From Deltaproteobacteria bacterium (GTDB lineage: Bacteria; Myxococcota_A; UBA9042): a stretch of DNA of 64,000 nucleotides. The notes below the pieces were generated by a model, which had not been told where the DNA came from, did not search any database, and saw only the letters and a list, made by a program, of their open reading frames with translations. The position numbers and the translations under genes are program-made. Of this stretch, positions 10,576 through 23,635 are shown piece by piece (position 1 is the stretch's first letter; every line of letters starts with the position of its first letter). The stretch lies in assembly GCA_020632665.1 (NCBI GenBank), contig JACKFC010000017.1, positions 40,423-104,422 on the forward strand, given 5' to 3'.

Positions 10576-13500
10576 ATGAACGCGCACGTTCGCTTGCAGG
10601 CCCGCGGCTCGACCCGCGTCGCCCTCTTCGTCGCGGCGCTCACGCTCCTCTCCGCCACCGACGCCTGGGCCGCCTTCTGCACCGGCAAGCAGAACGGCCT
10701 TTGGTGCGACGGCGACAAGCTCGTCTACTGCAGCAACGGCAACGTCAGCAGCAGCCAGACGTGCAGCAACGGCTGCCAATCGATGCCGCCCGGTACGCCC
10801 GACCAGTGCAAGGCGGCGACCGGCTTCTGCGCCGGCAAGGCCAGCGGCTATTGGTGCGACGGCAGCAAGCTGGTGCTGTGCAAATCCGGCAACATCAGCA
10901 GCAGCCAGAGCTGTCCGAACGGCTGCCAGTCGATGCCCTCGGGCACCGACGACAAGTGCAAGGAAGCGACCAATTTCTGCACTGGCAAGGCGAGTGGTCA
11001 GTGGTGCGACGGCAGCAAGTTGGTCCTTTGCAAATCGGGCAACATCAGCAGCAGCCAGAACTGTCCGAACGGCTGCCAGTCGATGCCCTCGGGCACCGAC
11101 GACAAGTGCAAGGAAGCGACCAATTTCTGCACCGGCAAGGCGAGCGGTCAGTGGTGCGACGGCAGCAAGTTGGTCCTTTGTAAGTCGGGCAACATCAGCA
11201 GCAGCCAGAACTGTCCGAACGGCTGCCAGTCGATGCCCTCGGGCACCGACGACAAGTGCAAGGAAGCGACGAATTTCTGCACCGGCAAGGCCAGCGGTCA
11301 GTGGTGCGACGGCAGCAAGTTGGTGCTGTGCAAATCCGGCAGCATCGCGAGCAGCCAGAATTGCCCGAACGGCTGCCAATCCAATCCCGCCGGGACCGAC
11401 GACACCTGCAAGGCGGCGACTTCCTTCTGCACCGGCAAGCAGAACGGCGCTTGGTGCGACGGCGACAAGTTGGTCCAATGCCAGAACGGCGCTGTCAGCA
11501 GCAGCCAGACCTGCGCCAACGGCTGCCAATCGATGCCGGTCGGCGTCCCCGATCAGTGCAAAGCGACCGGCGGCACGGGCTTCTGCGCCGGCAAGCAGAA
11601 CGGCCTCTGGTGCGACGGCGACGCGCTGGTCAACTGCCAGAACAACAGCGTCGCCAGCAGCCAGACCTGCAGCAACGGCTGCCAATCCATGCCGGTCGGC
11701 GTCGCCGATCAATGCGCTCCGAGCTCCGGTGGCGGCGGCGGCACTGGCGGCAAGTTGGAGCTCTGCAATCCCTTCAACCCCGCCAAAGCCGTGACCTGCG
11801 GCTTCGGCTGCTACAGCGGCCACAAGGGCAGCGACTACGCCTGCGGCGACGGCACGCCGCTCTACGCTCCGACGAACGGCACCGTCACCAAGGTCGTCAA
11901 CAGCTACAACGGGCAGACCTGCTCGCCGGACTTCGGCAACCTCATCAAGATCGCGACGGGCCCCTACGAGATCATCCTCGCCCACATGCGCAAGGACATC
12001 CTGGTCGGCGCGGGTGAGATCCAAGCCGGCACGCCGATCGGCTATGCCTCCAATACCGGCTACACCCTCACGCAGAAGAACGGCACCTGGGTCTGCCAAC
12101 AGGGCGGCGGCCACCACCTGCACCTCGAGGTCCGCAAGAACGGCGTCGCGGTCGACGCCTACGGCGGTGAGGTCGTCTGGAAGAACTGCGGTGACATCGG
12201 CAACGGCGGCGGCGGCGGGACCACGACTTTCTGTACCGGCAAGCAAAACGGCCTGTGGTGCGACGGCAGCGCGCTGGTCGACTGCAAGGACGGCGCGGTG
12301 GCGAGTAGCCAAACCTGCAGCAACGGCTGCGAGTCGATGCCGGTCGGCGTGCCGGATCAGTGCAAATCCGGCGGCGGCACCGGCTTCTGCAGCGGCAAGC
12401 AGAACGGCGCCTGGTGCGATGGCGACAAGCTCGTGACCTGCAGCGGCGGTTCGATCAGCGCCAGCGAGACCTGCGCCGACGGCTGCGAGTCGATGCCGGT
12501 CGGTGTCCCCGACCAATGCAAGGCCAAGCCGGTGACAGGGCCGTGCGAGGGCGTGCAAAACGCCGCGCTCTGCCACCAGGACGCCGTCGTGATCTGCGTC
12601 GCGGGGGCCGTGCAGCAGACCATCACCTGCCAGTTCGGATGCGTCGACAAGGCCGGTGTCGTCCACTGCAACGAGCCCGCCGCACCCGAGCCATGCGCCG
12701 GCAAGGGCGACGGCGCGAGCTGCGAAGGCGACGTGCTCCGCCAATGCCAATCCGGCAAGACCGCGAGCGCCACGCCCTGTGCCTTCGGCTGCGGCGTGGT
12801 CGGCGGCAATGCGCTCTGCCTGGCCAAGCCCGCACCGGCCGATCCCTGCGCCGGCCTCGCCGACGGCGGCCATTGCGAAGCGGCTTCGCTGCGGACCTGC
12901 CAATCCGGGCAAACCGTCGGCGCCATCACCTGCAACTTCGGCTGTGCCGGAGCGCCAGGGCAGGGCGCCTGCGCGCTCCCCGGCGGCCAAGGGCCGTGCC
13001 AGGGCAAGCCGGACGGTTGGCATTGCGACGGCAGCAAGCGGCTGCGCTGTGCGGCCGGCGCGCTCGCCGAACAAGAGCTCTGCGCCTTCGGCTGCGGCAC
13101 CTTCGCCGGACAGGTCGGCTGCCTCGGCGTCGAAGGCGCAGCGTGCGCGGCCAAGGTCGATGGCGGCGTCTGCCAGGGCGAGCTCCTGCTCGGCTGTGCC
13201 GCGGGACAGGTGCAATCGGCCACCCTTTGCATGCAAGGCTGTGTCGCCGACGGTGCGGCACATTGCGCTGCGGCCGCGGGCGTCTGTGCCGATAAGGTCG
13301 ACGGCGCCTGGTGCGACGCCGGCGCCCTGGTGCACTGCCTGAGCCAGTCCGAAGTCAGCGTCGAGATCTGCAAATTCGGCTGCCTACCGACCCCCGGACC
13401 GGTCGCCGACGTCTGCGCTTCGGCGAAAGACGCGAGCTGCTTCGGCAAGGCCGACGGCACGTGGTGCGACGCCGGGGCCAAGATCGTCTGCAGCGGCGGC

Positions 13501-14694: not shown

Positions 14695-15219
14695 ATGGCC
14701 GAGCACGTCGAACACCTCAGCACCACCGCCGTCCCGCAGCGCAAGCGCGCCTCGGTGGCGCCGCTGGTCATCGCGGTCGCCGTCGCGGCGATCGGCTTCT
14801 TCGTGATCACCTCGAGCACTTCGGGTGGCTCGGGGATGTTCAACTACGAGTTGGCGGATCTGGTGCAGAAGAAGGCCGAGCTCGCGGGCAAGGACATCAA
14901 GGTCTCGGGCCGCATCGCCAAGGGCAGCGTCCGCGGCGAGCCGGCGAGCGCGTCGTTCCGCTTCGAGCTCGAAGACGACGGCGGCAACCGCGTCTCGGTC
15001 GCCTATACCAAGCTGCTGCCCGATCCCTTCGAAGAGGGCCGGGACGCCATCGTCCAGGGCCGCATGGAGGGCGACACCGTCGTGGCGTCGAGCCTCACGG
15101 TGAAGTGCCCGAGCCGCTACGCCGATACCGAGAATCTCAGCGAGGCGGAGAAGCAACGCTACTACGAGAGCGACTACCGCAAGCACGCCGAGATGGCGAA
15201 AGAAGCCCCGAAACAATAG
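14695..15219 (+). CDS. ccmE: CcmE-family haem chaperone, CxxxY variant, with an N-terminal membrane anchor
   Basis: The OB-fold core VSGRIAKGSVRG...SFRFEL.DDGGNRVSVAYTKLLPDPFEEGRDAIVQGRME aligns with CcmE VxYxGxLPDxFxEGxxVVQG. Where canonical CcmE has LAKHDENYTP, this protein has VKCPSRYAD, so the haem-binding His is replaced by Cys. Confidence 0.8.
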   Translation: MAEHVEHLSTTAVPQRKRASVAPLVIAVAVAAIGFFVITSSTSGGSGMFNYELADLVQKKAELAGKDIKVSGRIAKGSVRGEPASASFRFELEDDGGNRVSVAYTKLLPDPFEEGRDAIVQGRMEGDTVVASSLTVKCPSRYADTENLSEAEKQRYYESDYRKHAEMAKEAPKQ

Positions 15220-15220
15220 C

Positions 15221-15691
15221 TCAGGGGGCGGTCTCTTCGGCAGCGGCGCAATCACCGGCATCGAGGACCTGCAGCGCTTCCTGCCGCTCGATCCGGACCA
15301 AGCCGTAGCCGTAGAGCGGCTCGCTGCCGCCGATGTCGAATGCGCAGCGGATGCCGACGCGGGTCACGTCTGGCCCCAGCTCCAGGTGGATCGGCATCGT
15401 CGCTTCCGGAGCGCTGCCACGCGCGAAGATCCGCTCGACGACGAAGGGCGTCTCGGCGGTCGGGACGCTCAGGCGCAGCCCGATCAGGCGGTCGCGTCCG
15501 AGCGTCGCGTCGCCTTCGTGCCGCTCGAGATGGGTCAGCAGCAGCGACGCCTTCGCGCCCACCACGTCGCGCCGGACCGAGGCCCACGCCGCGAGCAGCC
15601 CGGCGATCAGGCCGACGATGCCCAGCGGCCGTCGCCACCGCTCTGGGATCAGTCGAGGGATTGCCACGCCCGTTGCTCCTTGGCGGCCCAC
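15221..15691 (-). CDS. Membrane-anchored (single N-terminal TM) hypothetical protein, last gene of the LonN-ABC-ABC operon
   Basis: GTG start. RRPLGIVGLIAGLLAAWASV TM helix followed by about 115 aa. GC3 is high. The 5' end overlaps the upstream ABC gene by 43 nt. Confidence 0.45.
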   Translation of the reverse strand: MGRQGATGVAIPRLIPERWRRPLGIVGLIAGLLAAWASVRRDVVGAKASLLLTHLERHEGDATLGRDRLIGLRLSVPTAETPFVVERIFARGSAPEATMPIHLELGPDVTRVGIRCAFDIGGSEPLYGYGLVRIERQEALQVLDAGDCAAAEETAP

Positions 15692-16338
15692 GCCGAGGCC
15701 GGCTCCTCCGCCACGATCCGCCCTCCTTCGAGGTGGGCGACGCGGGCGCCGAGGGCGACCGCGAACGCGGGGTCGTGGCTGACGACCAGCGCCCCACGCG
15801 GGGCGGCGCAGAGCGTACGCAGCAGCGCCGCGAGCGCAACCGCCGTGGCCTCGTCCAAGGCGCTCGACGGCTCGTCGAGGAGCAGCAAGCGGGCGCCGCC
15901 GATGACGGCCCGGGCCAAGGCGACGCGCTGCTGCTGACCACCGGAGAGCGCCCGCGGTAGCCGCCGGGCCTCGGCCTCGGTCAGGCCCACGTCGACGAGC
16001 GCTGCGCTGGCCCGCACCCGGGCGGTCGCGCCGTCGACGCCCGCGACCCGCAGCGGATCAGCGACGGCGTCGCGCACCGGCCACCCGGCCGGCAACGTCG
16101 CGCCGGCGTCTTGCCCAAGCCAAGCCACACCCGCCCAGCGCTCGCGTGGCGGACGTTCCTCCCCGTCGAGCCGAACCACGCCACGTGCGTGCACCAAGCC
16201 GAGGACGACGTCGATCAGCGTGCTCTTGCCGGCGCCGCTCGGCCCGGCGAGGACGACGATCTCGCCCGGTGCGACCGTGAGCGTAACGTCGGTCAACGTC
16301 CGCGCCGAGATGCCGGAGAGCTCGAGCAAGGCGCTCAT
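15649..16338 (-). CDS. ABC transporter ATP-binding protein, 229 aa
   Basis: Walker A GPSGAGKST, signature LSGGQQQRVALARA, Walker B LLLLDEPSSALD, H-loop VSHD. The ATG shares an ATGA overlap with the upstream ABC gene's stop. Confidence 0.85.
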   Translation of the reverse strand: MSALLELSGISARTLTDVTLTVAPGEIVVLAGPSGAGKSTLIDVVLGLVHARGVVRLDGEERPPRERWAGVAWLGQDAGATLPAGWPVRDAVADPLRVAGVDGATARVRASAALVDVGLTEAEARRLPRALSGGQQQRVALARAVIGGARLLLLDEPSSALDEATAVALAALLRTLCAAPRGALVVSHDPAFAVALGARVAHLEGGRIVAEEPASAWAAKEQRAWQSLD

Positions 16339-17009
16339 CCGACCGCCTCCAGCCGGCCGCCAGGGTGCAAGCGCAGCACCCGATCGGCGACCGCGGTCGC
16401 GAACGCGAGGTCGTGCGTGACCAGCAGGATGCCGAATCGGTGCCGCTCGCGGATGCGCCGCAGCAGGCGAGCGACGCGGCGGGAGGCCTCACCGTCCAGG
16501 GCGCTGGTTGGCTCGTCCAGGAGCAGGAGCGTCGGCGCGACGGCGAGCGCCAGCGCAAGGACCAACCGTTGTCGCTGGCCGCCAGAGAGTTGGTGCGGAC
16601 GCCGGGATCGAAGCTCCGCGTGCTGCAGTCCGACCTCGGCGAACGCGTCGAGGCAATGTGCCAGCGGCAATCCGTGGATGCGTGCGTGCTCGCGGAGGGC
16701 GCCGTCGACCGTCTGCAGCGGGTCGAGCGCGCCGCTGCAGTCCTGCGGCAACAACGCGACGCTCCGGCCGCGCATCCGGCGATGCCAGGACGCGCCACCG
16801 ATCTGCAGTCGCGCGATGCGGACCTCTGCGGCGCTGCCGAGCAGGTCGAGGATGGCGCTGAGGAGGGTCGATTTGCCGACGCCGGAAGGGCCGACCACGG
16901 CGACCGACTCGCCCATGCCGACCTGCAGGTGCAACCCCTCCGCGCCGTAGAGGGCGTGGCCCGCGCGCTGTACGCAGAGACCATCCAGGACCAGGGCGGG
17001 GGCGCTCAG
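16335..17009 (-). CDS. ABC transporter ATP-binding protein; start codon unresolved
   Basis: GPSGVGKST, LSGGQRQRLVLALA, LLLLDEPTSALD and VTHD motifs. There is no ATG/GTG/TTG between the upstream LonN stop (17006) and the A-loop. The only in-frame candidate is CTG at 17009. Everything upstream in the 390-aa track ORF is Arg/Pro-rich and non-coding in appearance. Confidence 0.7.
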   Translation of the reverse strand: MSAPALVLDGLCVQRAGHALYGAEGLHLQVGMGESVAVVGPSGVGKSTLLSAILDLLGSAAEVRIARLQIGGASWHRRMRGRSVALLPQDCSGALDPLQTVDGALREHARIHGLPLAHCLDAFAEVGLQHAELRSRRPHQLSGGQRQRLVLALALAVAPTLLLLDEPTSALDGEASRRVARLLRRIRERHRFGILLVTHDLAFATAVADRVLRLHPGGRLEAVG

Positions 17010-17689
17010 TTCAGCAGCCCGACCTCGCCCTCGTGGCCCACGGCTTCGAGCTCGGTCGTGCGCAGCAGCAGATCGCTCGCGATATCGACCAAGCGCTCGG
17101 CGCGTTCCTTCGCCGACGGGGTCTCCAGCAGCGCCTGCCGCACGGTGGGATCGAAGGCGAGAACGGTCGCGACCCGGTGGGTCAGGATTCCGGCCTTCTT
17201 GCTCGAGGAGAGGGCCTGCGCGAGCAGAGAGGCATGATCGCCGCGCTGCATCATCAGGCCGCGCACGGTGCTGCTCAGCCGCTCGATGGCGGCTTCGAGC
17301 TCGACCGGGTCGTCGACGATCTCGTCGATCACTTCGACCTCGCCGGTCCGGTAGGGCTGGAGTTGATGGATCGTGCGGACCCGAACCCGGGCCAGGCAAT
17401 GCACGTAGAGGTTGTAGCGGCCGTCGGCGAGGCGCTCTTCGTTGACGATTCGGCAGAGCGAGCCCACCTCGTGCGCCGGCGGCGAGCCGTAGTAGCTCTC
17501 TTCCCACCCGGGCTTGAGCCCGACCAGCACCAACAGGCGATTGGTCGCGAGGGCGTCGCTGACCAACATCCGGTAGCGCGGCTCGAAGATGTGCAGGCGC
17601 TGGGTGGTCTGCGGGAAGATGACGAAGGTCGGCAGCGGGAAGACGGGCAGCGACTCGTAGCGCTCGTCGACGATGGCGATCGATTGCAT
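17006..17689 (-). CDS. Stand-alone Lon protease N-terminal (substrate-binding) domain protein
   Basis: LPVFPLPTFVIFPQTTQRLHIFEPRYRML is the LON-N signature. Start taken at Met25 (MQSIAIVDE), which has GAGG upstream. The preceding 24 codons are Arg/Pro-rich. Confidence 0.75.
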   Translation of the reverse strand: MQSIAIVDERYESLPVFPLPTFVIFPQTTQRLHIFEPRYRMLVSDALATNRLLVLVGLKPGWEESYYGSPPAHEVGSLCRIVNEERLADGRYNLYVHCLARVRVRTIHQLQPYRTGEVEVIDEIVDDPVELEAAIERLSSTVRGLMMQRGDHASLLAQALSSSKKAGILTHRVATVLAFDPTVRQALLETPSAKERAERLVDIASDLLLRTTELEAVGHEGEVGLLN

Positions 17690-17726
17690 GGCGGGCCTCG
17701 GCTGCGCCCCAGAGAATACGGGCGCG

Positions 17727-17761
17727 CGGTGAGATCCTACGGGATCTCGCCGCCTCGGCAA
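17727..17761 (-). promoter_or_regulatory. Candidate sigma70-type promoter (TTGCCG-16 nt-TAGGAT, reading on the minus strand) with an overlapping perfect palindrome GAGATCC-TACG-GGATCTC (17731-17748)
   Basis: Read from the sequence. It lies in the 85-nt gap between the adenosine-deaminase-like gene and the LonN gene. Confidence 0.3.
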
Positions 17762-17774
17762 GAATTTCCGTCAG

Positions 17775-18800
17775 CTACAAGCCGTAGCCGCCGTCGTCGT
17801 TGCCTCCGGCGGTCAGCCGGGGCCGGTGCCGCCAGTTCTCGACGGCGCGCGCGATGACGAAGCGAAGGCGTGGATCGACGAAAGCGGCCTCGACCGCGCG
17901 CGCCGTGGCGGTGCGCAGCTGCTCGAGCCGCCAGCCGAGGACCCGAGAGACCTGGTCGAGCTCGGCGGTCATCGTCGTGCCGAGCAGGCCGGAGGCGCCG
18001 CTGCCGATCGTGACGAAGAGGCCGGCCTCCATCAGCCGTCCAGCCGAGGGTGGCGCGCCGTCGCGTTGCAGGCCGCAGCGTGTCTCGACCGTCGGCAGGC
18101 AGATCACGGGCACACGACGCGAGCGCAGCTGCAGCAGGGCGGCCTCGTCGCGAGGTAGGTGGTGGCCATGGACGACGCGCGAAGGGTCGAGGGCGAGGAT
18201 CTCTTCGACCTGCCGCCGGCTGCCGCCGTAGCCGGCCGTCACCGCGAGGGCGAGGCCGTCCGCGCGCAGCTTGCCCAGCACCTCCGCGAGGCCGCCGATC
18301 GGCAATGCCTCGTCGCCGGAGAGTGCGACGCCGCACATCCGATCGCCGGCGGCCTCGCGCAACGCGGCGATCGCGGCCGCGGCGGCGTCCGGATCGTCAC
18401 CACGGCGGACTTCGGCGATGATCACCCAGGAGAGCAGGGCGTCTTCCGATTCGTCGATGGCGCGCTCGAAGCCGCGCTCGATGGCGTCGAAGACGACCTC
18501 TCCGCCCAGGGCAGGGCGCAGCGCGTCGACGTGGACCTCGACGTGCACCACCGAGTCGCGGATCATGCGCTGGGCCAGGCTGTAGGCGATCGCCTCGACC
18601 TGCCGCGGCTTGTGCAGCACCGACGCCACCAGGTCCAGCGCGGCGTCCCAACCTGCGGGGCCTTCCTTGGCGAGCAGCGGCGCGACGTCGCGGTCGTCAC
18701 CGGCCTCGTGCATCAACTCGACGAGCTGCTCGACCGTCGGACTCCCGAGCAGACTGGCGCAGAGATCGACTTTGGGTAGGGTCGCGACAATCGTGCTCAT
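17775..18800 (-). CDS. Adenosine-deaminase-fold protein with degenerate catalytic and zinc-binding residues (likely a pseudoenzyme)
   Basis: ADA-like blocks are present: LPKVDLCASLLG (ADA has PKVELHVHLDG), AVTAGYGGS (ADA has TVHAGEVGS), SRVVHGHHL (DRIGHG-like) and TIGSGASG (ADA has SLNTDDP). His15, His17, His214, Glu217 and Asp295/296 are all replaced. Start at Met16 with a GAGAGGAAG ribosome-binding site. Confidence 0.75.
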   Translation of the reverse strand: MSTIVATLPKVDLCASLLGSPTVEQLVELMHEAGDDRDVAPLLAKEGPAGWDAALDLVASVLHKPRQVEAIAYSLAQRMIRDSVVHVEVHVDALRPALGGEVVFDAIERGFERAIDESEDALLSWVIIAEVRRGDDPDAAAAAIAALREAAGDRMCGVALSGDEALPIGGLAEVLGKLRADGLALAVTAGYGGSRRQVEEILALDPSRVVHGHHLPRDEAALLQLRSRRVPVICLPTVETRCGLQRDGAPPSAGRLMEAGLFVTIGSGASGLLGTTMTAELDQVSRVLGWRLEQLRTATARAVEAAFVDPRLRFVIARAVENWRHRPRLTAGGNDDGGYGL

Positions 18801-18810
18801 GCTTCCTCTC

Positions 18811-19467
18811 TCAACCGAGCTGGCGCTCCCAACGTGAGACTTCACGCAGGAAGCTCGCGTGGATGTACTCGCTGCGGATCATCTCGGCCATCTCCTCGAC
18901 GTCCCGGTACTCCTCCCAGGAGACCCGGATCGTCGGGATCCGCTTGCTGATATCTTGCACGAACGACTCGTAGGCGTCGTGCAGCGCGCTGAGATACTCC
19001 ACCGACACGCCGGATTCGACGTCGCGACTGCGCTCGCGGATCCGCGCCATGCTGCTCTCGGGCGAGACATCGAGGTAGATGATCGCCGACGGCTTGCACA
19101 TGAAATTCGACATGTGGCGGAAGAGGTCGACGTAGGTGCGGTAGTCGCGCTCCTCCATCAGCCCGGTCGTCGAGAGCATCTTGGCGAAGATCGCGTCCTC
19201 GTAGATCGTGCGGTCCTGGATCGCCGGGCGGCCACGCCAGATGATCTCCTGGTGCTGCTGGAAGCGGCGGTTGAGCAAGTAGATCTGGGTCGCGAAGCTG
19301 TAGCGCGCGGTGTCGCGATAGAAGTCGGCGAGGTATTCGTTGTCCTCCACCGGCTCGTAGTAGACGTCCAGACCCATATGGCGGCCGAGCGCGGTCGCGA
19401 GCGTGGTCTTGCCGGCGCCGATCATTCCGGCGACGCCGATGAAGAGGTTGTCGAGGCGATCGGACAT
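18811..19467 (-). CDS. Deoxynucleoside kinase (dAK/dGK/dCK family)
   Basis: P-loop VAGMIGAGKTT and family-wide similarity (YYEPVEDN...NRRF...RTIYEDAIFA). The ATG overlaps the upstream stop (TGATG). GGGAGG ribosome-binding site. Confidence 0.85.
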   Translation of the reverse strand: MSDRLDNLFIGVAGMIGAGKTTLATALGRHMGLDVYYEPVEDNEYLADFYRDTARYSFATQIYLLNRRFQQHQEIIWRGRPAIQDRTIYEDAIFAKMLSTTGLMEERDYRTYVDLFRHMSNFMCKPSAIIYLDVSPESSMARIRERSRDVESGVSVEYLSALHDAYESFVQDISKRIPTIRVSWEEYRDVEEMAEMIRSEYIHASFLREVSRWERQLG

Positions 19468-19922
19468 CAGGCCTCCCGTCGGGCGTAGCGCTCCGACAGC
19501 GCGGTCAGGGCAGGGGTCATCGTGCCGAGGGCGGTGACGAGCCGCTGCGCGGCGGTATCGAGCGCCGTGCGCAACGCGGCGGCGTCGATGCTCGTGTCGA
19601 TATCTTCGTAGCTCACCCGGATCAGAGCGTCGCTGCGCTCGAGCTCGGCCTCGATCCGGGTATCGGGGAAGCGGACCACGGCAGCGCGATCGCCGGCGTC
19701 GAGGCGGTCGAGTGCCTCCAGCCAAGCGAGCAACAGGCCGTCGAGTTGGTCCCAGAAATCCGGCCGGCAAAGCGGCGCTTCGGGCGTTCCCAGCTCGAGC
19801 GCACCGTCGAGGCAGCCAGACGCAGCCGCCTGCTCGAGCGCCTCGGTGCACGCGGCATCGCTCCACGGCTCGGGCGACAACTCGGCGCCCACCCGAAGGT
19901 GCAGGATGCACGGTGTCGACAT
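19467..19922 (-). CDS. Hypothetical protein, 151 aa
   Basis: Internal ATG (MSTPCILHL...) 16 nt after the GltJ-like stop. The longer track ORF (from 20084) would overlap the upstream gene by 145 nt. Confidence 0.45.
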   Translation of the reverse strand: MSTPCILHLRVGAELSPEPWSDAACTEALEQAAASGCLDGALELGTPEAPLCRPDFWDQLDGLLLAWLEALDRLDAGDRAAVVRFPDTRIEAELERSDALIRVSYEDIDTSIDAAALRTALDTAAQRLVTALGTMTPALTALSERYARREA

Positions 19923-19938
19923 GCCAGTGGCCAGGCGA

Positions 19939-22023
19939 TCAGCCGCCCACGGCGTAGCGCACGGTGTACTTCGTGGTGCCGCCGGAGGCCTGCGGGAAGC
20001 GGAGCTTCTTCGCGGCGCCGATGATGCACTTGCCGAGCTCGTCGCTCGAGTGCTTACCGATGACCTTGGCGTTGCTGACGCCACCCTGGGCGGCGACGTA
20101 GATGATGACCTTGATGGTCTCGGCGCCGGCGTCGATATCGCCGTGCAGCATATAGCAGCGCAGCACGTCCGAACGCTTGCCCGCGGCGATCTTGTCGACC
20201 TCGGCCTGGCTCATCTTCCGTCCAGCTCCGCCGCTGGAGGGCTCCTCGTCGTCCTCGTCCTTCTTGCTCGGCTGCGGCGCGGTCATCGCCTTGGCCTGCT
20301 TCTTGGCCCGCTCGGCGGCGAGGAGCTTGTCGATATCGTCCATATTCTTGGACGTCTTTGGCGGCTCTGGGGTCGGCTCGGGCTTGGTCTCGGCCTTCTT
20401 CGCCTCACGCGCCTTCTTCTCGGCCAGAATGCGGTCGATCTCGTCCATATTGCCGCTCGACGCGGGCTTCTCGGCCTTGGCTTCGACCTTGGCTTCGGGC
20501 TTCTTCTCGACCTTGGCTTCAGCCTTGGTCTCCGCCTTGGCCTCGGCCTTGGCGGAAGGCTTGGCCTCGGCCTTGACGACCGCCGCCTCTGCCTTCGGAG
20601 CGGTCTCGGTGCCGCCCGCATCAGCCTGCGCCGTCGCGGCGGCCGCTGCGTCCGCTGCAGCCTTCTCGGCGGCGGCCTTCTCCTCTGCAGCCTTCTTCTC
20701 GGCGGCGGCCTTCTCTTCTGCAGCCTTCTTCTCGGCGGCAGCCTTGTCGTCCGCGGCCTTCTTGTCTGCGGCGGCCTTGGCAGCAGCGATCCGCGCAGCT
20801 TCGGCCTGTGGCGCCGGCTGGACGACCTGCGGCGCAACGCCGCGGGTCTCCGTTCCCTTGCCCTTGTTCTTGGCGAGGAAGATGCCGCCGCCGACCAGCG
20901 CCAGGACCACGACGATACCGACGATCAGACCGGCACCCATGCCGCCCTCGTCATCCTTCTTCGCGGTGGCGGCTGCCTTGCCGGCGGCAACCGGGTTGGC
21001 GCCACCGACCGAGGGCTTGCCGCTCCCAGCCTTGCTGCTCGCGGTCGCTCCGCTCGTCTTCGCCGCTGGGGTCGACTTGGCCTGCGTCGCCGTCGCGCCA
21101 GCCGTGCCGGCCGCGGCCGCGGCTGCACCGGCCTTGCCACGGGCCGTGTCCTTCTTGCCCGCGGCAGCCTTCGCGTCGGCCGCGGTCTCTTCGGTCGGGA
21201 TGGCCTCGACGCGCGTCGCCGCCTCGTCCTGGCCGCTCGCCTTGGCCTCGGCCTTGCCCGGCAGCGCCACGACGCCAGCCTTGCGCTTGCCGGTGGGGAC
21301 GGCCGGGGGGGCGTCGCTCTCGGCCCCAGGAACCGGCGGCGGATCGGCGTCCTCGGAAGCCGGCACCGGCGGGGGCTCTGCCGCTGCCGTCGCGGCCGAC
21401 GTCACCGCGGCCTTGGCCACCGGGGGCGGCTCCTCGTCGACGTCGGCCTCCTCGGCGATCAGCGCGACGTCGCCGCCGGCAGGCAGCGCCGGAGGCTCGG
21501 CCTCGCCTTCGCCGCCTTCGCCGCCGTCGCCCTGGGCGTCCAGCTTGACGAGCAGCTCGATCATCGCGGCCGAGAGCTCGAGCGTCTGGGCGCGGCGCGG
21601 CGACTTCCGCTTGGCGACCGGCTCGGCCGAAGCGCCGCCGCTCACCTCGGCGACCTTCTCCTGGAAGGGCGCGACCTCGCGCACCGGCGTCCAGGCGCCG
21701 AATCCCTTGCGCCACACCAGGTCGTCCGCCTTGAGGCGGCCGGCACCGATGTGCTCCTGCACCTCCGCCTCGGTCAGCGGACCCACCTGTTTGCCTTCGA
21801 TGCCGGCGAACCAGACACGCTGCGGCGTCGTCGGTGCGGCCTCGGGCATGTCCATCTGGAAGGGCATCGTCGTGCGGCCAGCGTCGGCCTCGGTCGCGAC
21901 ACCGCGGACCCGGATCTCCGCTCCACACTTCTTGCAACCGACCTTGAAGACGCGGTTCTTGCCTTGAACCTTCTCGTCGGGGATTTTGTAGTTCGCGCCG
22001 CAGGCCGGGCAGCTGATCTTCAT
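19939..22023 (-). CDS. GltJ/AgmX-like protein: MJ0042-type zinc ribbon + GYF domain + TM + low-complexity Ala/Lys/Glu/Pro region + C-terminal AgmX-type domain
   Basis: MKISCPACGANYKIPDEKV...GCKKCGAEI zinc ribbon. RVWFAGIEGKQVGPLTEAEVQEHIGAGRLKADDLVWRKGFGAWTPV GYF-like segment. TM LIVGIVVVLALVGGGIFL. Conserved C-terminal ~80 aa (VLRCYMLHG...VIIYVAAQGGVSNAKVI...). Confidence 0.75.
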   Translation of the reverse strand: MKISCPACGANYKIPDEKVQGKNRVFKVGCKKCGAEIRVRGVATEADAGRTTMPFQMDMPEAAPTTPQRVWFAGIEGKQVGPLTEAEVQEHIGAGRLKADDLVWRKGFGAWTPVREVAPFQEKVAEVSGGASAEPVAKRKSPRRAQTLELSAAMIELLVKLDAQGDGGEGGEGEAEPPALPAGGDVALIAEEADVDEEPPPVAKAAVTSAATAAAEPPPVPASEDADPPPVPGAESDAPPAVPTGKRKAGVVALPGKAEAKASGQDEAATRVEAIPTEETAADAKAAAGKKDTARGKAGAAAAAAGTAGATATQAKSTPAAKTSGATASSKAGSGKPSVGGANPVAAGKAAATAKKDDEGGMGAGLIVGIVVVLALVGGGIFLAKNKGKGTETRGVAPQVVQPAPQAEAARIAAAKAAADKKAADDKAAAEKKAAEEKAAAEKKAAEEKAAAEKAAADAAAAATAQADAGGTETAPKAEAAVVKAEAKPSAKAEAKAETKAEAKVEKKPEAKVEAKAEKPASSGNMDEIDRILAEKKAREAKKAETKPEPTPEPPKTSKNMDDIDKLLAAERAKKQAKAMTAPQPSKKDEDDEEPSSGGAGRKMSQAEVDKIAAGKRSDVLRCYMLHGDIDAGAETIKVIIYVAAQGGVSNAKVIGKHSSDELGKCIIGAAKKLRFPQASGGTTKYTVRYAVGG

Positions 22024-22131
22024 GGCGGGGAGCCTCCGTCAGGTCGCGCAAAGGGGGCGAGAATCTAGCGCGCACGTCGCGACTTGGCAACGTCGCCGAC
22101 ACGCACCGACGCACGAGGTCGCGCGTCGATC

Positions 22132-22602
22132 TCAATCCGCCAGAAGCTGCGCCAATGCCGCGGGCGGCGTGACCCCCAGTGCCTCGGTCAAGAGACGCGC
22201 CGCGACGGCGCCGTCCCTGCCGCCCAAAAAGCGGAGCAATGCCTCGATCAGGACGGTCGATCCGGCGTCGATCGCGGCCTCTCCGTTCGGTCGAGCGCGC
22301 ACCACTTGGCGGTACCATTGCGCGTGCCGCCGCAGGCCTTCCGCGTCGTCGTGGCGAAGCGCGAGGACCAATTGTCGCGTGGTCGCGTCGAAATCGGCCT
22401 CGAGGATGCGGATGCCCTTGATGCCGCGATGCGGCGGTAACTCGGGCCGGCGTGTGGCGAGTGTCTGCCCCGCCCAGCCGGTCAGCGAGCGTCGCACAGC
22501 TTCCAGTCGGTCGGCGAGCGCAGCCCGGCCGGCGCCCGGATCGAGAAAATCGATGCCCTCGGCCAGCCAGTCTGCGTCGTCGTCGTCGTCGAAGATCCCC
22601 AT
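22132..22602 (-). CDS. Hypothetical acidic N-terminus protein, 156 aa (MGIFDDDDDADWLAEGIDFLDPG...)
   Basis: Internal ATG. The upstream part of the 243-aa track ORF is Ser-rich and non-coding in appearance. Sits 108 nt upstream of the GltJ-like gene on the same strand. Confidence 0.45.
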   Translation of the reverse strand: MGIFDDDDDADWLAEGIDFLDPGAGRAALADRLEAVRRSLTGWAGQTLATRRPELPPHRGIKGIRILEADFDATTRQLVLALRHDDAEGLRRHAQWYRQVVRARPNGEAAIDAGSTVLIEALLRFLGGRDGAVAARLLTEALGVTPPAALAQLLAD

Positions 22603-22666
22603 CGCGCCCCCTGGGCAGCCGGCCACAGACGTTGCGTCGCGGCGGGTCGTCGGGCATAGGAAGGCC

Positions 22667-23635
22667 ATGATCACGGCCATCGTCAACCCAAAGGCACAGA
22701 CGCGACACGCCGAGCTGGTCCACGCGCTGACATCTGCCAGCGGTCGGCTCCGCATCCTGGCTGCCGACGAACCGTCCGCCATCGACGCGCTGCTCTCGGA
22801 TCCGGACCAACTCGCGGCCACGGAACTGATCATCGTCGCCGGCGGCGACGGCACAGTCTCCAACTTGCTGACCCGCGCCGGCCTCTATGATGCCCTGGAT
22901 CGGCTGCCGCCGATGCTGCTGCTGCCGGTCGGCGATGTCGGCACCGCGGCGCGCGAGCTCGTCGGCGCCGGCGCGGTCGACGCGCTCGCCAGCCGCGTGC
23001 TGGTCGCGTGGGGCCGCGGCGTCCGCCGGATCGCACAGCTGCCGGTGGTTCGCCTGCGGGTCGGCGGCGAGTCGAGTCGCGTTGGCATCACCGCGAGTCT
23101 CGGCGCGATCGCCCGCGCTCATCGCGACTATGCCGCCGCCGTCGTGCCCGGCAGCGTCGGGCTCTCCGAGGTTCTGCTGCGGTTTGGGACCGGCAGCCTA
23201 CCGGACGATCGATTTCGTCGGATCGCGGCGGAAGTGCGCTGGCAAGATCCACTCGGCCGTTCGGGCGCGATGCAAGGCGTCACCGCCGCGCTGCTGAGCC
23301 CACTTCCCGGCTTCTTCGGTTGGGTGCGGCCCTTCCCCGCGGTGCGCGGCCTCGCGGTCGACGGTGTGCATGGGCTGGTCTCCGGCCTGGGGCCATTCGC
23401 GACCAAGCTCTCGCTGCCTCGCCTGCTGCGTGGCGTCCGACCCAATGGCCGCCGCTTCCACGCCGGGCCATTGGCAAAGCTGCAGTTCGAGGTCGAAGAT
23501 GATCCGGACGTCGCCGTCGTCGATGGCGAACGGGTCGCCTTGCCACCCGGCGCCACCGTGAGCGTGGAGGCGTTGGCCCCGCTGCGCGTCGTCGCGTGGC
23601 GGCCGATCCCCAAGGGCGAGATCGTGCCAGGGTGA
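22667..23635 (+). CDS. Diacylglycerol-kinase catalytic-domain lipid kinase (YegS/BmrU-like)
   Basis: LIIVAGGDGTVSNLL motif. Start at the internal ATG (MITAIVNP); the upstream 215 codons of the track ORF are Arg/Ser-rich. Confidence 0.75.
   Translation: MITAIVNPKAQTRHAELVHALTSASGRLRILAADEPSAIDALLSDPDQLAATELIIVAGGDGTVSNLLTRAGLYDALDRLPPMLLLPVGDVGTAARELVGAGAVDALASRVLVAWGRGVRRIAQLPVVRLRVGGESSRVGITASLGAIARAHRDYAAAVVPGSVGLSEVLLRFGTGSLPDDRFRRIAAEVRWQDPLGRSGAMQGVTAALLSPLPGFFGWVRPFPAVRGLAVDGVHGLVSGLGPFATKLSLPRLLRGVRPNGRRFHAGPLAKLQFEVEDDPDVAVVDGERVALPPGATVSVEALAPLRVVAWRPIPKGEIVPG

Follow-up and report, generated by a model that had tools for sequence, protein, structure and literature searches.

At the locus lies a run of minus-strand genes within the window, the term used here for the whole 64-kb stretch of DNA that was analysed (Table 1). 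A GltJ-like gene is followed by a gene for a 151-residue hypothetical protein, a gene for a deoxynucleoside kinase (dNK), a gene for an adenosine deaminase (ADA)-like protein, and, beyond it, a gene for a stand-alone Lon N-terminal domain protein (Lon-N). The layout given in the initial annotation, with the GltJ-like and 151-aa genes upstream and 10 nt separating dNK from the ADA-like gene, is upheld. The 341-, 218-, and 227-aa products are exact matches to deposited MAG proteins; the match to Lon-N is MCB9739593.1, and the ADA-like protein is deposited as "hypothetical protein H6747_10025". In a consensus scan of positions 15200–22800, the sole sigma-70-like promoter match is that directly upstream of the GltJ-like start, and scanning downstream of this match reveals no minus-strand terminator-like site before the end of the ABC genes; these scans weakly suggest a single long operon. 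Searches of the region with Rfam and for tRNAs and terminators return nothing relevant, the GC content is uniform, and tblastn detects no true ADA, thymidine kinase (TK), REC-HD-GYP protein, or ribonucleotide reductase (RNR) elsewhere in the 64 kb.

Table 1. Features of the dNK/ADA-like locus, in positions of the window.
Feature	Position	Strand	Description
Sigma-70-like promoter match	22062..22090	minus	directly upstream of GltJ-like start
GltJ-like gene	22023..19939	minus	694 aa, heads the cluster
Intergenic gap, 16 nt	GltJ-like gene to 151-aa gene	minus	
151-aa hypothetical gene	19922..19467	minus	TGA/ATG overlap with dNK (TGATG)
dNK gene	19467..18811	minus	218 aa
10-nt spacer, dNK stop to ADA-like start	18810..18801	minus	inside purine-rich Shine-Dalgarno-like GAGAGGAAGC
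ADA-like (pseudo-ADA) gene	18800..17775	minus	341 aa, ADA-type (beta/alpha)8 barrel lacking the metal site
Codons C14-A15-S16 replacing the HxH Zn-ligand motif	18753..18761	minus	strand beta1, LPKVDLCASLLG versus LPKxELHxHLDG
Codons T188-A-G-Y191 replacing HAGE	18228..18239	minus	Zn ligand H214, proton donor E217
Codons G268-A269 replacing DD of (N/S)TDDP	17994..17999	minus	Zn ligand D295, D296
Family-specific C-terminal module R313-L341	17778..17864	minus	basic helix LRFVIARAVENWRHRP plus disordered tail ending NDDGGYGL-COOH
Lon N-terminal (substrate-binding) domain protein	17006..17689	minus	227 aa, stand-alone, follows the pseudo-ADA gene in the window's lineage

The GltJ-like membrane protein has a zinc ribbon of the MJ0042 type at its N-terminus, a GYF_2 domain, repeats rich in Ala, Lys, and Glu, a single TM segment, and a C-terminal domain of the AgmX/PglI type, with the ribbon and GYF regions matching Pfam Zn_ribbon_4 and GYF_2. 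Its NCBIfam gliding_GltJ score of 87.9 bits lies far under that model's cutoff (450), and there is a second match, to myxo_SS_tail; the gene keeps its position both in the window's lineage and in a sister lineage described below. The 151-aa protein, whose gene is translationally coupled to dNK through the TGATG overlap, sits in the slot that TK fills in the sister lineage. A degenerate TK was considered but finds no support: the protein shares no sequence similarity with TK, and its fold, which is well predicted (AF2 pLDDT 93), has no significant match in the PDB. It is also without a match in Pfam, NCBIfam, and PADLOC; its homologues number only eight, all of them hypothetical; and it is an orphan.

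The kinase carries the features that identify a deoxynucleoside kinase, namely the domain (Pfam dNK, PF01712, 130 bits with a partial query sequence), a P-loop (GMIGAGKTT), a DR(S/T) motif in the form DRT, and an Arg-rich lid (RIRERSRD), the three motifs being intact in the translation. Its homologues, which number in the thousands, carry the names deoxynucleoside or deoxyadenosine kinase; the best 120 are 72%–95% identical and include proteins from Myxococcota and Bradymonadales MAGs. The dN/dS of dNK is 0.045, and it is a core gene of the Myxococcota (72%–96% identity). Lon-N matches Pfam LON_substr_bdg at 126 bits, and its gene is found downstream of the ADA-like gene in most loci.

The ADA-like protein retains the ADA-type (beta/alpha)8 barrel, as had been read from its fold-defining blocks. 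It matches Pfam A_deaminase (PF00962) at 85.1 bits against a gathering cutoff of 27, its AF2 model has a pLDDT of 87, and the best Foldseek matches of this model are ADAL/MAPDA and the murine, bacterial, and human ADAs, with a TM of about 0.8–0.85 (0.84 for the match to ADA/ADAL) and E of about 1e-18. The order of blocks is likewise that of ADA/ADAL (MAPDA; PF00962, COG1816), running from LPK-x-(D/E)-L in beta1 to GDE, AG, and a His equivalent to H238. Unlike these enzymes, however, the protein falls under every NCBIfam ADA equivalog cutoff, scoring 80.8 bits against TIGR01430 (cutoff 216.55) and 5- to 20-fold below the cutoffs of the six PRK09358 models.

The metal site and most of the catalytic site are gone. 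Residues (mouse numbering) were mapped in three independent MAFFT alignments that set the protein against E. coli Add plus four further intact ADAs, and for a second time in phmmer alignments to PDB ADAs. Misalignment of the ligands is ruled out by these mappings, and the ligands are truly absent: Zn ligands H15, H17, H214, and D295 are replaced by C14, S16, T188, and G268, catalytic residues E217 and D296 by Y191 and A269, and D19 by L18. Every substitution listed in the initial annotation (at His15, His17, His214, Glu217, and Asp295/296) proves correct. Of the nine metal or substrate-contact residues of ADA, only G184 (here G162) and H238 (H211) are retained; the other seven are lost, with several now bulky and hydrophobic. 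Since all four metal ligands are absent both here and in every relative, the protein cannot, on sequence grounds, be a conventional Zn-dependent deaminase, and this part of the earlier reading holds.

The suggestion that the barrel still binds nucleosides fares less well. It may be envisaged that the protein binds a purine nucleoside or nucleotide without turnover and, as a small-molecule sensor or buffer, informs the kinase or an HD-GYP phosphodiesterase about (deoxy)adenosine or a signalling nucleotide. The barrel is well predicted, the GDE motif (equivalent to G184) is invariant in the window's subfamily, most members of which also keep H238, and the operon partners dNK, TK, and HD-GYP all handle nucleosides or nucleotides. 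The loss of seven of the nine contact residues nevertheless makes binding in the canonical mode unlikely; D19L, E217Y, and D296A, together with a Trp at the D296 position in the sister lineage, suggest that the former pocket has been filled and is hydrophobic. Moreover, G184 and H238 are not conserved in the wider family, and conservation is strongest in a C-terminal module rather than at the barrel mouth. A sensor or buffer role is thus considered unlikely.

The ADA-like protein and its relatives, designated pseudo-ADA here, form a small, previously undescribed family from one lineage of uncultured Myxococcota. A profile search of 1.84 billion representatives yields only 16 matches at E<=1e-30 (about 16 clusters); the two weakest of these, and the weaker matches beyond them, are ordinary ADAs, in which the match stops near residue 310 and the C-terminal module is absent. 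Members of the family are confined to Myxococcota MAGs. A metagenome scan with a back-translated ARxVExWRHRP DNA pattern returns 20 matches, 8 of which are true members. Literature searches located no description of a catalytically dead ADA-family branch or of ADA pseudoenzymes, and nothing relevant on myxobacterial dNK; the JGI label attached to family members is "adenosine deaminase".

None of the 20+ members keeps the full ligand set. The residues found at the vacated positions differ among them, with C/S/Y/F/V/H and others at H15 and T/Q/A/S/E/V and others at H214, which looks like relaxed constraint and not a redesigned site; Gly occupies the D295 position in nearly all members. The loss of all catalytic residues and an NCBI annotation of merely "hypothetical protein" could be taken as signs of a decaying pseudogene or functionless relic. 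Against this, more than 20 genomes carry the gene with an uninterrupted reading frame, and the dN/dS of pseudo-ADA is 0.19 (0.22 for the neighbouring LonN gene), indicating purifying selection and a gene that is maintained. Invariant residues also persist at 37% pairwise identity, most densely in the C-terminal module, and residues stay invariant at identities of 30%–40%; the family has, besides, acquired a C-terminal extension that is conserved. The relic explanation is effectively refuted by these conservation data. Pseudo-ADA combines the loss of its metal ligands with retention under selection, as is expected of a pseudoenzyme, a class with well-established examples among kinases, phosphatases, and certain amidohydrolases (PyrC′ and the CRMPs).

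Some enzymes of the amidohydrolase superfamily are metal-independent, and pseudo-ADA could in principle have been neo-functionalised in this direction, with new residues (H86, E88, S124, R208, and R226/R229) supporting another nucleoside or nucleotide reaction. Purifying selection would suit such an enzyme, as would the family-specific invariant polar residues on the barrel strands, which comprise H86, standing in place of a Tyr common to all ADAs, and S124/W125. The old active-site positions vary freely among members, however; no recognisable new catalytic constellation is conserved beyond a single His; and no Pfam or NCBIfam domain model other than ADA matches. A metal-independent enzyme is accordingly regarded as improbable. 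H86, S124, R208, and the Gly at D295 are all family-invariant or nearly so, and may point to a ligand or catalytic site that has escaped recognition, which would speak against a non-catalytic role.

The C-terminal module is found in none of the true ADAs aligned. Its basic helix with E-x-WRHRP is common to all family members, and in most of them it is followed by a disordered tail ending in aromatic-small-Leu/Met; residues 325–341 of the AF2 model have a pLDDT below 50. The last 57 residues account for 25 of the 56 columns that are invariant in the window's subfamily, and E321, W323, R324, H325, R326, and P327 are invariant in an alignment of 17 tail-bearing members. The tail is missing in four divergent members (P0135, P0137, P0139, and P0141), an observation that weighs against a partner role. 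The possibility that the motif is a docking signal common to other proteins was examined and dismissed, since among 1955 ORFs only the pseudo-ADAs carry it. In style, the tail resembles those of RNR beta and SSB, the E. coli NrdB (RNR beta) tail having been verified as DTDDLSNFQL. No RNR genes occur in the sequences examined, and possible mimicry of the RNR-beta tail is offered as a lead only.

Pseudo-ADA always lies inside one syntenic cluster, whose order is ZnR-GYF protein, TK or orphan-151, dNK, REC-HD-GYP where present, pseudo-ADA, and Lon-N protein. In the window's lineage, dNK is directly upstream of pseudo-ADA in all nine loci (the window, L002–L008, and L020), and in L020 the two genes overlap by 4 nt. 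In the sister lineage, a REC-HD-GYP response regulator is directly upstream, 4–76 nt away, at seven distinct loci (L010, L012/13, L015, L018, L030, L034, and L041), usually with TK and dNK upstream of this pair. Where enough upstream sequence is available in the sister lineage, dNK belongs to the pseudo-ADA operon in five of six loci; L034 has the REC-HD-GYP/pseudo-ADA pair with no dNK nearby. That the immediate upstream gene differs between the lineages is a further observation against a partner role.

The coupling of kinase and ADA-like protein proposed in the initial annotation is therefore borne out in part. The two genes do recur together, invariably as neighbours in the window's lineage, but the whole region of around ten genes, including ClpB, DAGK, and CcmE, is syntenic, and remains so across lineages whose proteins are as low as 30% identical. 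The adjacency is thus largely inherited and not specific to the pair. In addition, dNK homologues at 73%–78% identity are present without any pseudo-ADA in L014, L016, and L017, which implies that the kinase does not need pseudo-ADA.

Genomic context also bears on the idea that the dNK/ADA-like pair constitutes a nucleotide-manipulating anti-phage defence system. Active ADA-fold defence effectors do exist, and structures of one, Cad1, are among the Foldseek matches and the system is represented in PADLOC, whose matches here are generic only (dNK to VakA, 38 bits; the ADA domain to CARF_ADA, 35 bits). Cad1 CARF-ADA and RADAR RdrB share the ADA fold with pseudo-ADA, but those effectors are catalytically active deaminases with a fused or paired sensor, and they lie in variable defence islands. 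In pseudo-ADA, by contrast, the deaminase site is dead, and none of the neighbours is a CARF protein, an RdrA-like ATPase, or another sensor. The genes occupy a stable syntenic housekeeping region of uniform GC, which includes a core gene in dNK, and a viral-contig scan recovers no relatives. The locus shows neither a specific match to a model of nucleotide-depletion or ADA-based defence (Cad1, RADAR, dCTP deaminase, dGTPase) with its cognate sensor nor an island-like or mobile context, and a defence function is very improbable.

Pseudo-ADA is probably a non-catalytic partner protein, and not an enzyme or a phage-defence gene. The account that we favour, and hold to be somewhat better than even, is that of a retained ADA-fold pseudoenzyme whose role is not catalytic but that of an adaptor or of a structural or regulatory subunit, docking through its helix and tail. 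This ADA paralogue has kept the (beta/alpha)8 barrel, whereas its Zn site and its acid and base residues for catalysis are irreversibly lost, and it has newly gained a functional C-terminal module, consisting of an arginine-rich helix (..RF..AR.VE.WRHRP) and a flexible tail with a conserved acidic/aromatic-small-Leu/Met carboxy-terminus. Its production may be translationally coupled to whichever gene precedes it, and the basic helix and tail are hypothesised to dock it onto a partner protein. The most plausible partner in the window would be the adjacent dNK, in a PyrC′-like arrangement, and in the sister lineage the HD-GYP response regulator.

A precedent for such an arrangement is the P. aeruginosa ATCase-pDHO complex, in which an inactive amidohydrolase-fold PyrC′ chain is required for ATCase activity and dodecamer assembly (PMC7053772). 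As with PyrC′, pseudo-ADA is an inactive barrel of the amidohydrolase superfamily encoded beside an enzyme of nucleotide metabolism; PyrC′, however, belongs to the DHOase branch and has another partner, whereas pseudo-ADA belongs to the ADA branch, its complex with dNK is hypothetical, and dNK homologues exist without it. A second parallel is provided by the animal CRMP/DPYSL proteins, dihydropyrimidinase-like pseudoenzymes that have lost their metal ligands and possess a binding or scaffold role and a functional disordered C-terminal tail. The amidohydrolase fold, the lost ligands, and the disordered tail are all shared with pseudo-ADA, although CRMP/DPYSL are eukaryotic cytoskeletal regulators with no sequence relation to it beyond the superfamily.

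A stronger version of the favoured account, which we consider speculative and unlikely as it stands, would make pseudo-ADA an obligatory non-catalytic subunit or adaptor with the tail as its docking peptide. The tail would link the salvage kinase (in sister lineages, an HD-GYP phosphodiesterase of cyclic dinucleotides) with a further machine, for instance RNR alpha or, by way of the neighbouring Lon-N protein, a Lon-type protease. If this were true, deoxynucleoside salvage would be coupled with either second-messenger signalling or the de novo synthesis of dNTPs, and pseudo-ADA would become the first pseudoenzyme of the ADA fold to have a defined role in regulation.

The impact of the family is limited by its narrow, uncultured host range. 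Its members can be recognised by a Gly where ADA has D295, a His in place of the beta2 Tyr, and E-x-WRHRP with the tail, diagnostics that prevent mis-annotation: labels of "adenosine deaminase" would lead metabolic models of these Myxococcota to include a capacity for purine deamination in error. Should pseudo-ADA turn out to regulate dNK or an HD-GYP phosphodiesterase as a subunit, it would represent a new layer of control over deoxynucleotide salvage or cyclic-dinucleotide signalling.

The 341-residue product of the gene directly after the deoxynucleoside kinase gene (dNK), here called pseudo-ADA, is an adenosine deaminase (ADA)-fold barrel. It matches Pfam A_deaminase at 85 bits, and its AF2 model (pLDDT 87; residues 325–341 alone are disordered) has as top PDB matches ADAL/MAPDA and mouse, bacterial, and human ADA, with TM scores of approximately 0.8–0.85. 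Alignment with intact ADAs, E. coli Add among them, and inspection of phmmer alignments to PDB ADAs reveal that all four zinc ligands are absent: H15, H17, H214, and D295 (mouse numbering) are replaced by C14, S16, T188, and G268. The proton donor E217 has become Y191, D296 is A269, and D19 is L18, with G184 and H238 the only survivors of the ADA site. The initial annotation had described an ADA-like protein stripped of its zinc ligands, and every detail of that observation is borne out by the Pfam match, the AF2/PDB matches, and the alignments with intact ADAs. Against the NCBIfam ADA equivalog models, too, the protein falls far short of every cutoff. Pseudo-ADA is homologous to adenosine deaminase, yet it fails on ligands, catalytic residues, and equivalog scores, and its annotation as an adenosine deaminase is therefore unwarranted.

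A word-indexed search of 5.8 billion proteins recovered nine relatives at 37%–95% identity and one ordinary ADA at 22%, and when 1.84 billion cluster representatives were searched with a profile, only 16 matched at E ≤ 1e-30. Profile scores drop steadily from 543 to about 130 bits; at about 124 bits and lower the matches are to ordinary ADAs, and their alignments end near residue 310. None of more than 20 aligned family members keeps the four-ligand set, and pseudo-ADA represents a family rather than an isolated accident. The residues at the lost ligand positions vary between members—except at D295, where nearly all have Gly—and this variation looks like a signature of relaxed constraint. Members also share residues missing from ADAs, namely H86 (Tyr in all ADAs), S124/W125, R226/R229, R291, R301, F314, and R318. 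A C-terminal extension comprises E-x-W-R-H-R-P and then 10–15 disordered residues, ending in [D/E]..G-[Y/F]-[G/S]-[L/M] in the window's subfamily and in KGD-[N/G]-W-S-L or GGDPFAM in its sister; of the 56 columns that are invariant in the subfamily alignment, 25 fall in the last 57 residues.

Between the window and L002, a relative's locus (84% identical), dN/dS is 0.19 for pseudo-ADA, 0.22 for the gene of the stand-alone Lon N-terminal-domain protein (Lon-N), and 0.045 for dNK. Pseudo-ADA is thus under purifying selection; that it is a decaying relic is scarcely tenable, being contradicted by both this value and the gained C-terminal module. The fold has been kept, the catalytic centre destroyed family-wide, and selection maintained, and the protein has acquired a conserved basic helix and a disordered C-terminal short linear motif. 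Nucleoside binding in the canonical manner is unlikely, since of nine positions that contact metal or substrate seven have been lost, several of them to bulky hydrophobics (Y/F/L in place of E217; in the sister lineage, W in place of D296). Continued use of the barrel as a ligand sensor is rather doubtful, and a metal-independent neo-enzyme with the invariant H86, S124, and R208 at its core is more improbable still.

The window (GC approximately 70%) carries the gene in a tight minus-strand run at 15.6–22.0 kb (see table), in which the sole promoter-like site, upstream of the GltJ-like gene, and the absence of a minus-strand terminator-like site downstream of it are weak evidence for a single long operon. 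No thymidine kinase (TK), REC-HD-GYP, true ADA, or RNR gene lies within the window.

Features of the window and of relatives' loci
Feature	Position	Strand	Remarks
GltJ-like protein (ZnR-GYF), 694 aa	22023..19939	-	Pfam zinc ribbon and GYF_2; NCBIfam GltJ 87.9 bits, cutoff 450
Tandem repeats in GltJ-like gene	20470-20779		Periods 12-36 nt
Orphan protein (orphan-151), 151 aa	19922..19467	-	
dNK, 218 aa	19467..18811	-	ATG overlaps TGA of orphan-151
dNK/ADA-like spacer, 10 nt		-	Shine-Dalgarno-like GAGAGGAAGC
ADA-like gene, 341 aa	18800..17775	-	
Lon-N protein, 227 aa	17689..17006	-	
Two ABC ATPase genes		-	After Lon-N gene
Small conserved hypothetical gene	22162-22566	-	Between DAGK-like and GltJ-like genes
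Diacylglycerol-kinase-like (DAGK) ORF	22022..23635	+	Domain begins near residue 218
Secreted-looking protein, 1357 aa	10576-14649	+	
REC-HD-GYP response regulator, highly conserved	L010 6856-7917, L012 6777-7844, L015 7805-8842, L018 9032-10141, L034 4245-5306	-	
dNK-TK-dNK trio and next gene	L014 4445-7628		Bradymonadales MAG

All recovered loci come from MAGs or metagenomes labelled Myxococcales, Myxococcota, or Deltaproteobacteria, or mis-binned. In the window's lineage (window, L002–L008, L039, and L020) the order is DAGK(-), small hypothetical, ZnR-GYF, orphan-151, dNK, pseudo-ADA, Lon-N, ABC, ABC, hypothetical, CcmE(-). The initial annotation would have been refuted had kinase and ADA-like genes not been kept as neighbours in relatives, which is not what is seen: dNK is immediately 5′ of pseudo-ADA in all nine loci with visible upstream sequence, and adjacency persists even where pseudo-ADA identity has fallen to 30%, there with a 4-nt overlap between the two genes. 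In the sister lineage (L010, L012/13, L015, L018, L030, L034, and L041) the order is ClpB(-), DAGK(-), hypothetical, ZnR-GYF, TK, dNK, [PAS], REC-HD-GYP, pseudo-ADA, variable genes, Lon-N. Here pseudo-ADA starts 4–76 nt (4–10 nt in three loci) past a response regulator with an intact HHE(K/R)WDG(S/T)GYP motif. In L034 the HD-GYP/pseudo-ADA pair is preceded by a hypothetical and an ABC gene, with no dNK seen within 2.3 kb of upstream sequence, and adjoins a convergent adenylate/guanylate cyclase gene, which hints at a link with cyclic-nucleotide signalling.

The kinase itself is a core gene, with thousands of homologues, the best 120 all at least 72% identical; those of L014, L016, and L017 (other Myxococcota and Bradymonadales; 73%–78% identity) have no ADA-like neighbour. 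In L014 the orthologous dNK belongs to a dNK-TK-dNK trio, near which no ADA-like gene was found; the trio overlaps the gene that comes next, which has a metallo-beta-lactamase fold and weakly matches the Anti-Pycsar Apyc1 Pfam model. Adjacency is weaker evidence than it appears because the entire block of 10 genes is inherited as a unit, which gene adjoins pseudo-ADA depends on lineage, and the kinase clearly works without pseudo-ADA elsewhere. A role in phage defence, also raised in the initial annotation, is highly improbable: PADLOC gave no specific match, viral relatives were not found, and the context is stable and housekeeping.

Pseudo-ADA is most likely a pseudoenzyme that has shifted its function from the mouth of the barrel to the C-terminal module, and it would work by binding another macromolecule. 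By analogy and translational coupling, dNK would be the first candidate partner in the window, and the HD-GYP regulator the candidate in its sister lineage. Other possible partners are the GYF domain of the protein encoded upstream and the Lon-N protein, which may read the C-terminal tail. The tail style—acidic, then aromatic-x-Leu at the carboxy-terminus—bears a generic resemblance to the SSB tail and the RNR beta tail (DTDDLSNFQL in E. coli; sequence checked). Pseudomonas ATCase needs an inactive dihydroorotase-like chain for activity and assembly (PMC7053772). This PyrC'-type chain, likewise a pseudoenzyme of amidohydrolase fold whose gene adjoins that of a nucleotide-metabolism enzyme (PMC7053772), would be the closest functional analogue. 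In its working pseudo-ADA would most resemble known amidohydrolase-fold pseudoenzymes (PyrC' and the CRMPs), although to be placed in that functional class a protein must be shown to form a complex. No account of an ADA-fold pseudoenzyme came up in literature searches.

Several neighbouring genes deserve comment. Orphan-151 is translationally coupled to dNK and occupies the slot of the sister lineage's TK; it has only eight known homologues, and its structure, predicted with very high confidence (pLDDT 93) as a mix of beta-sheet and helices, matches no PDB fold significantly (best TM 0.35), nor does any family model match the protein. Lon-N homologues (57%–83% identical) occur in L002–L010, L012, L018, L020, and L023, and the gene is kept downstream of pseudo-ADA in most loci. 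The GltJ-like protein scores far below the GltJ equivalog cutoff and so should not be taken for GltJ; its repeats encode an Ala/Lys/Glu-rich low-complexity linker (AAEKKAAEEK…) joining the cytosolic ZnR-GYF part to a C-terminal AgmX/PglI-type domain. The small conserved gene, which has a 145-aa counterpart in L010 at 37% identity, implies that the plus-strand DAGK-like ORF is over-extended at its 5′ end. The 1357-aa protein contains tandem Cys-rich repeats, six to seven in number and 150 bp (50 aa) each (TRF; 10674-11693), with further degenerate copies, a putative M23-type peptidase in its central stretch, judged by eye (…HHLHLEV…), and a C-terminal hydrophobic anchor.

JGI/IMG names two members of the dead family (P0003 and P0004) 'adenosine deaminase'; NCBI PGAP calls the window's protein 'hypothetical' (H6747_10025), and the window's proteins have exact GenBank counterparts on a 110-kb contig from a 'Deltaproteobacteria bacterium' MAG. 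Significance is limited by a narrow, uncultured host range and by a family known here from sequence and predicted structure. Metabolic reconstructions with the JGI label would over-predict purine deamination. The pseudo-ADA family is a sharply delimited branch of a textbook enzyme family, dead yet under selection, and its new tail is intriguing.
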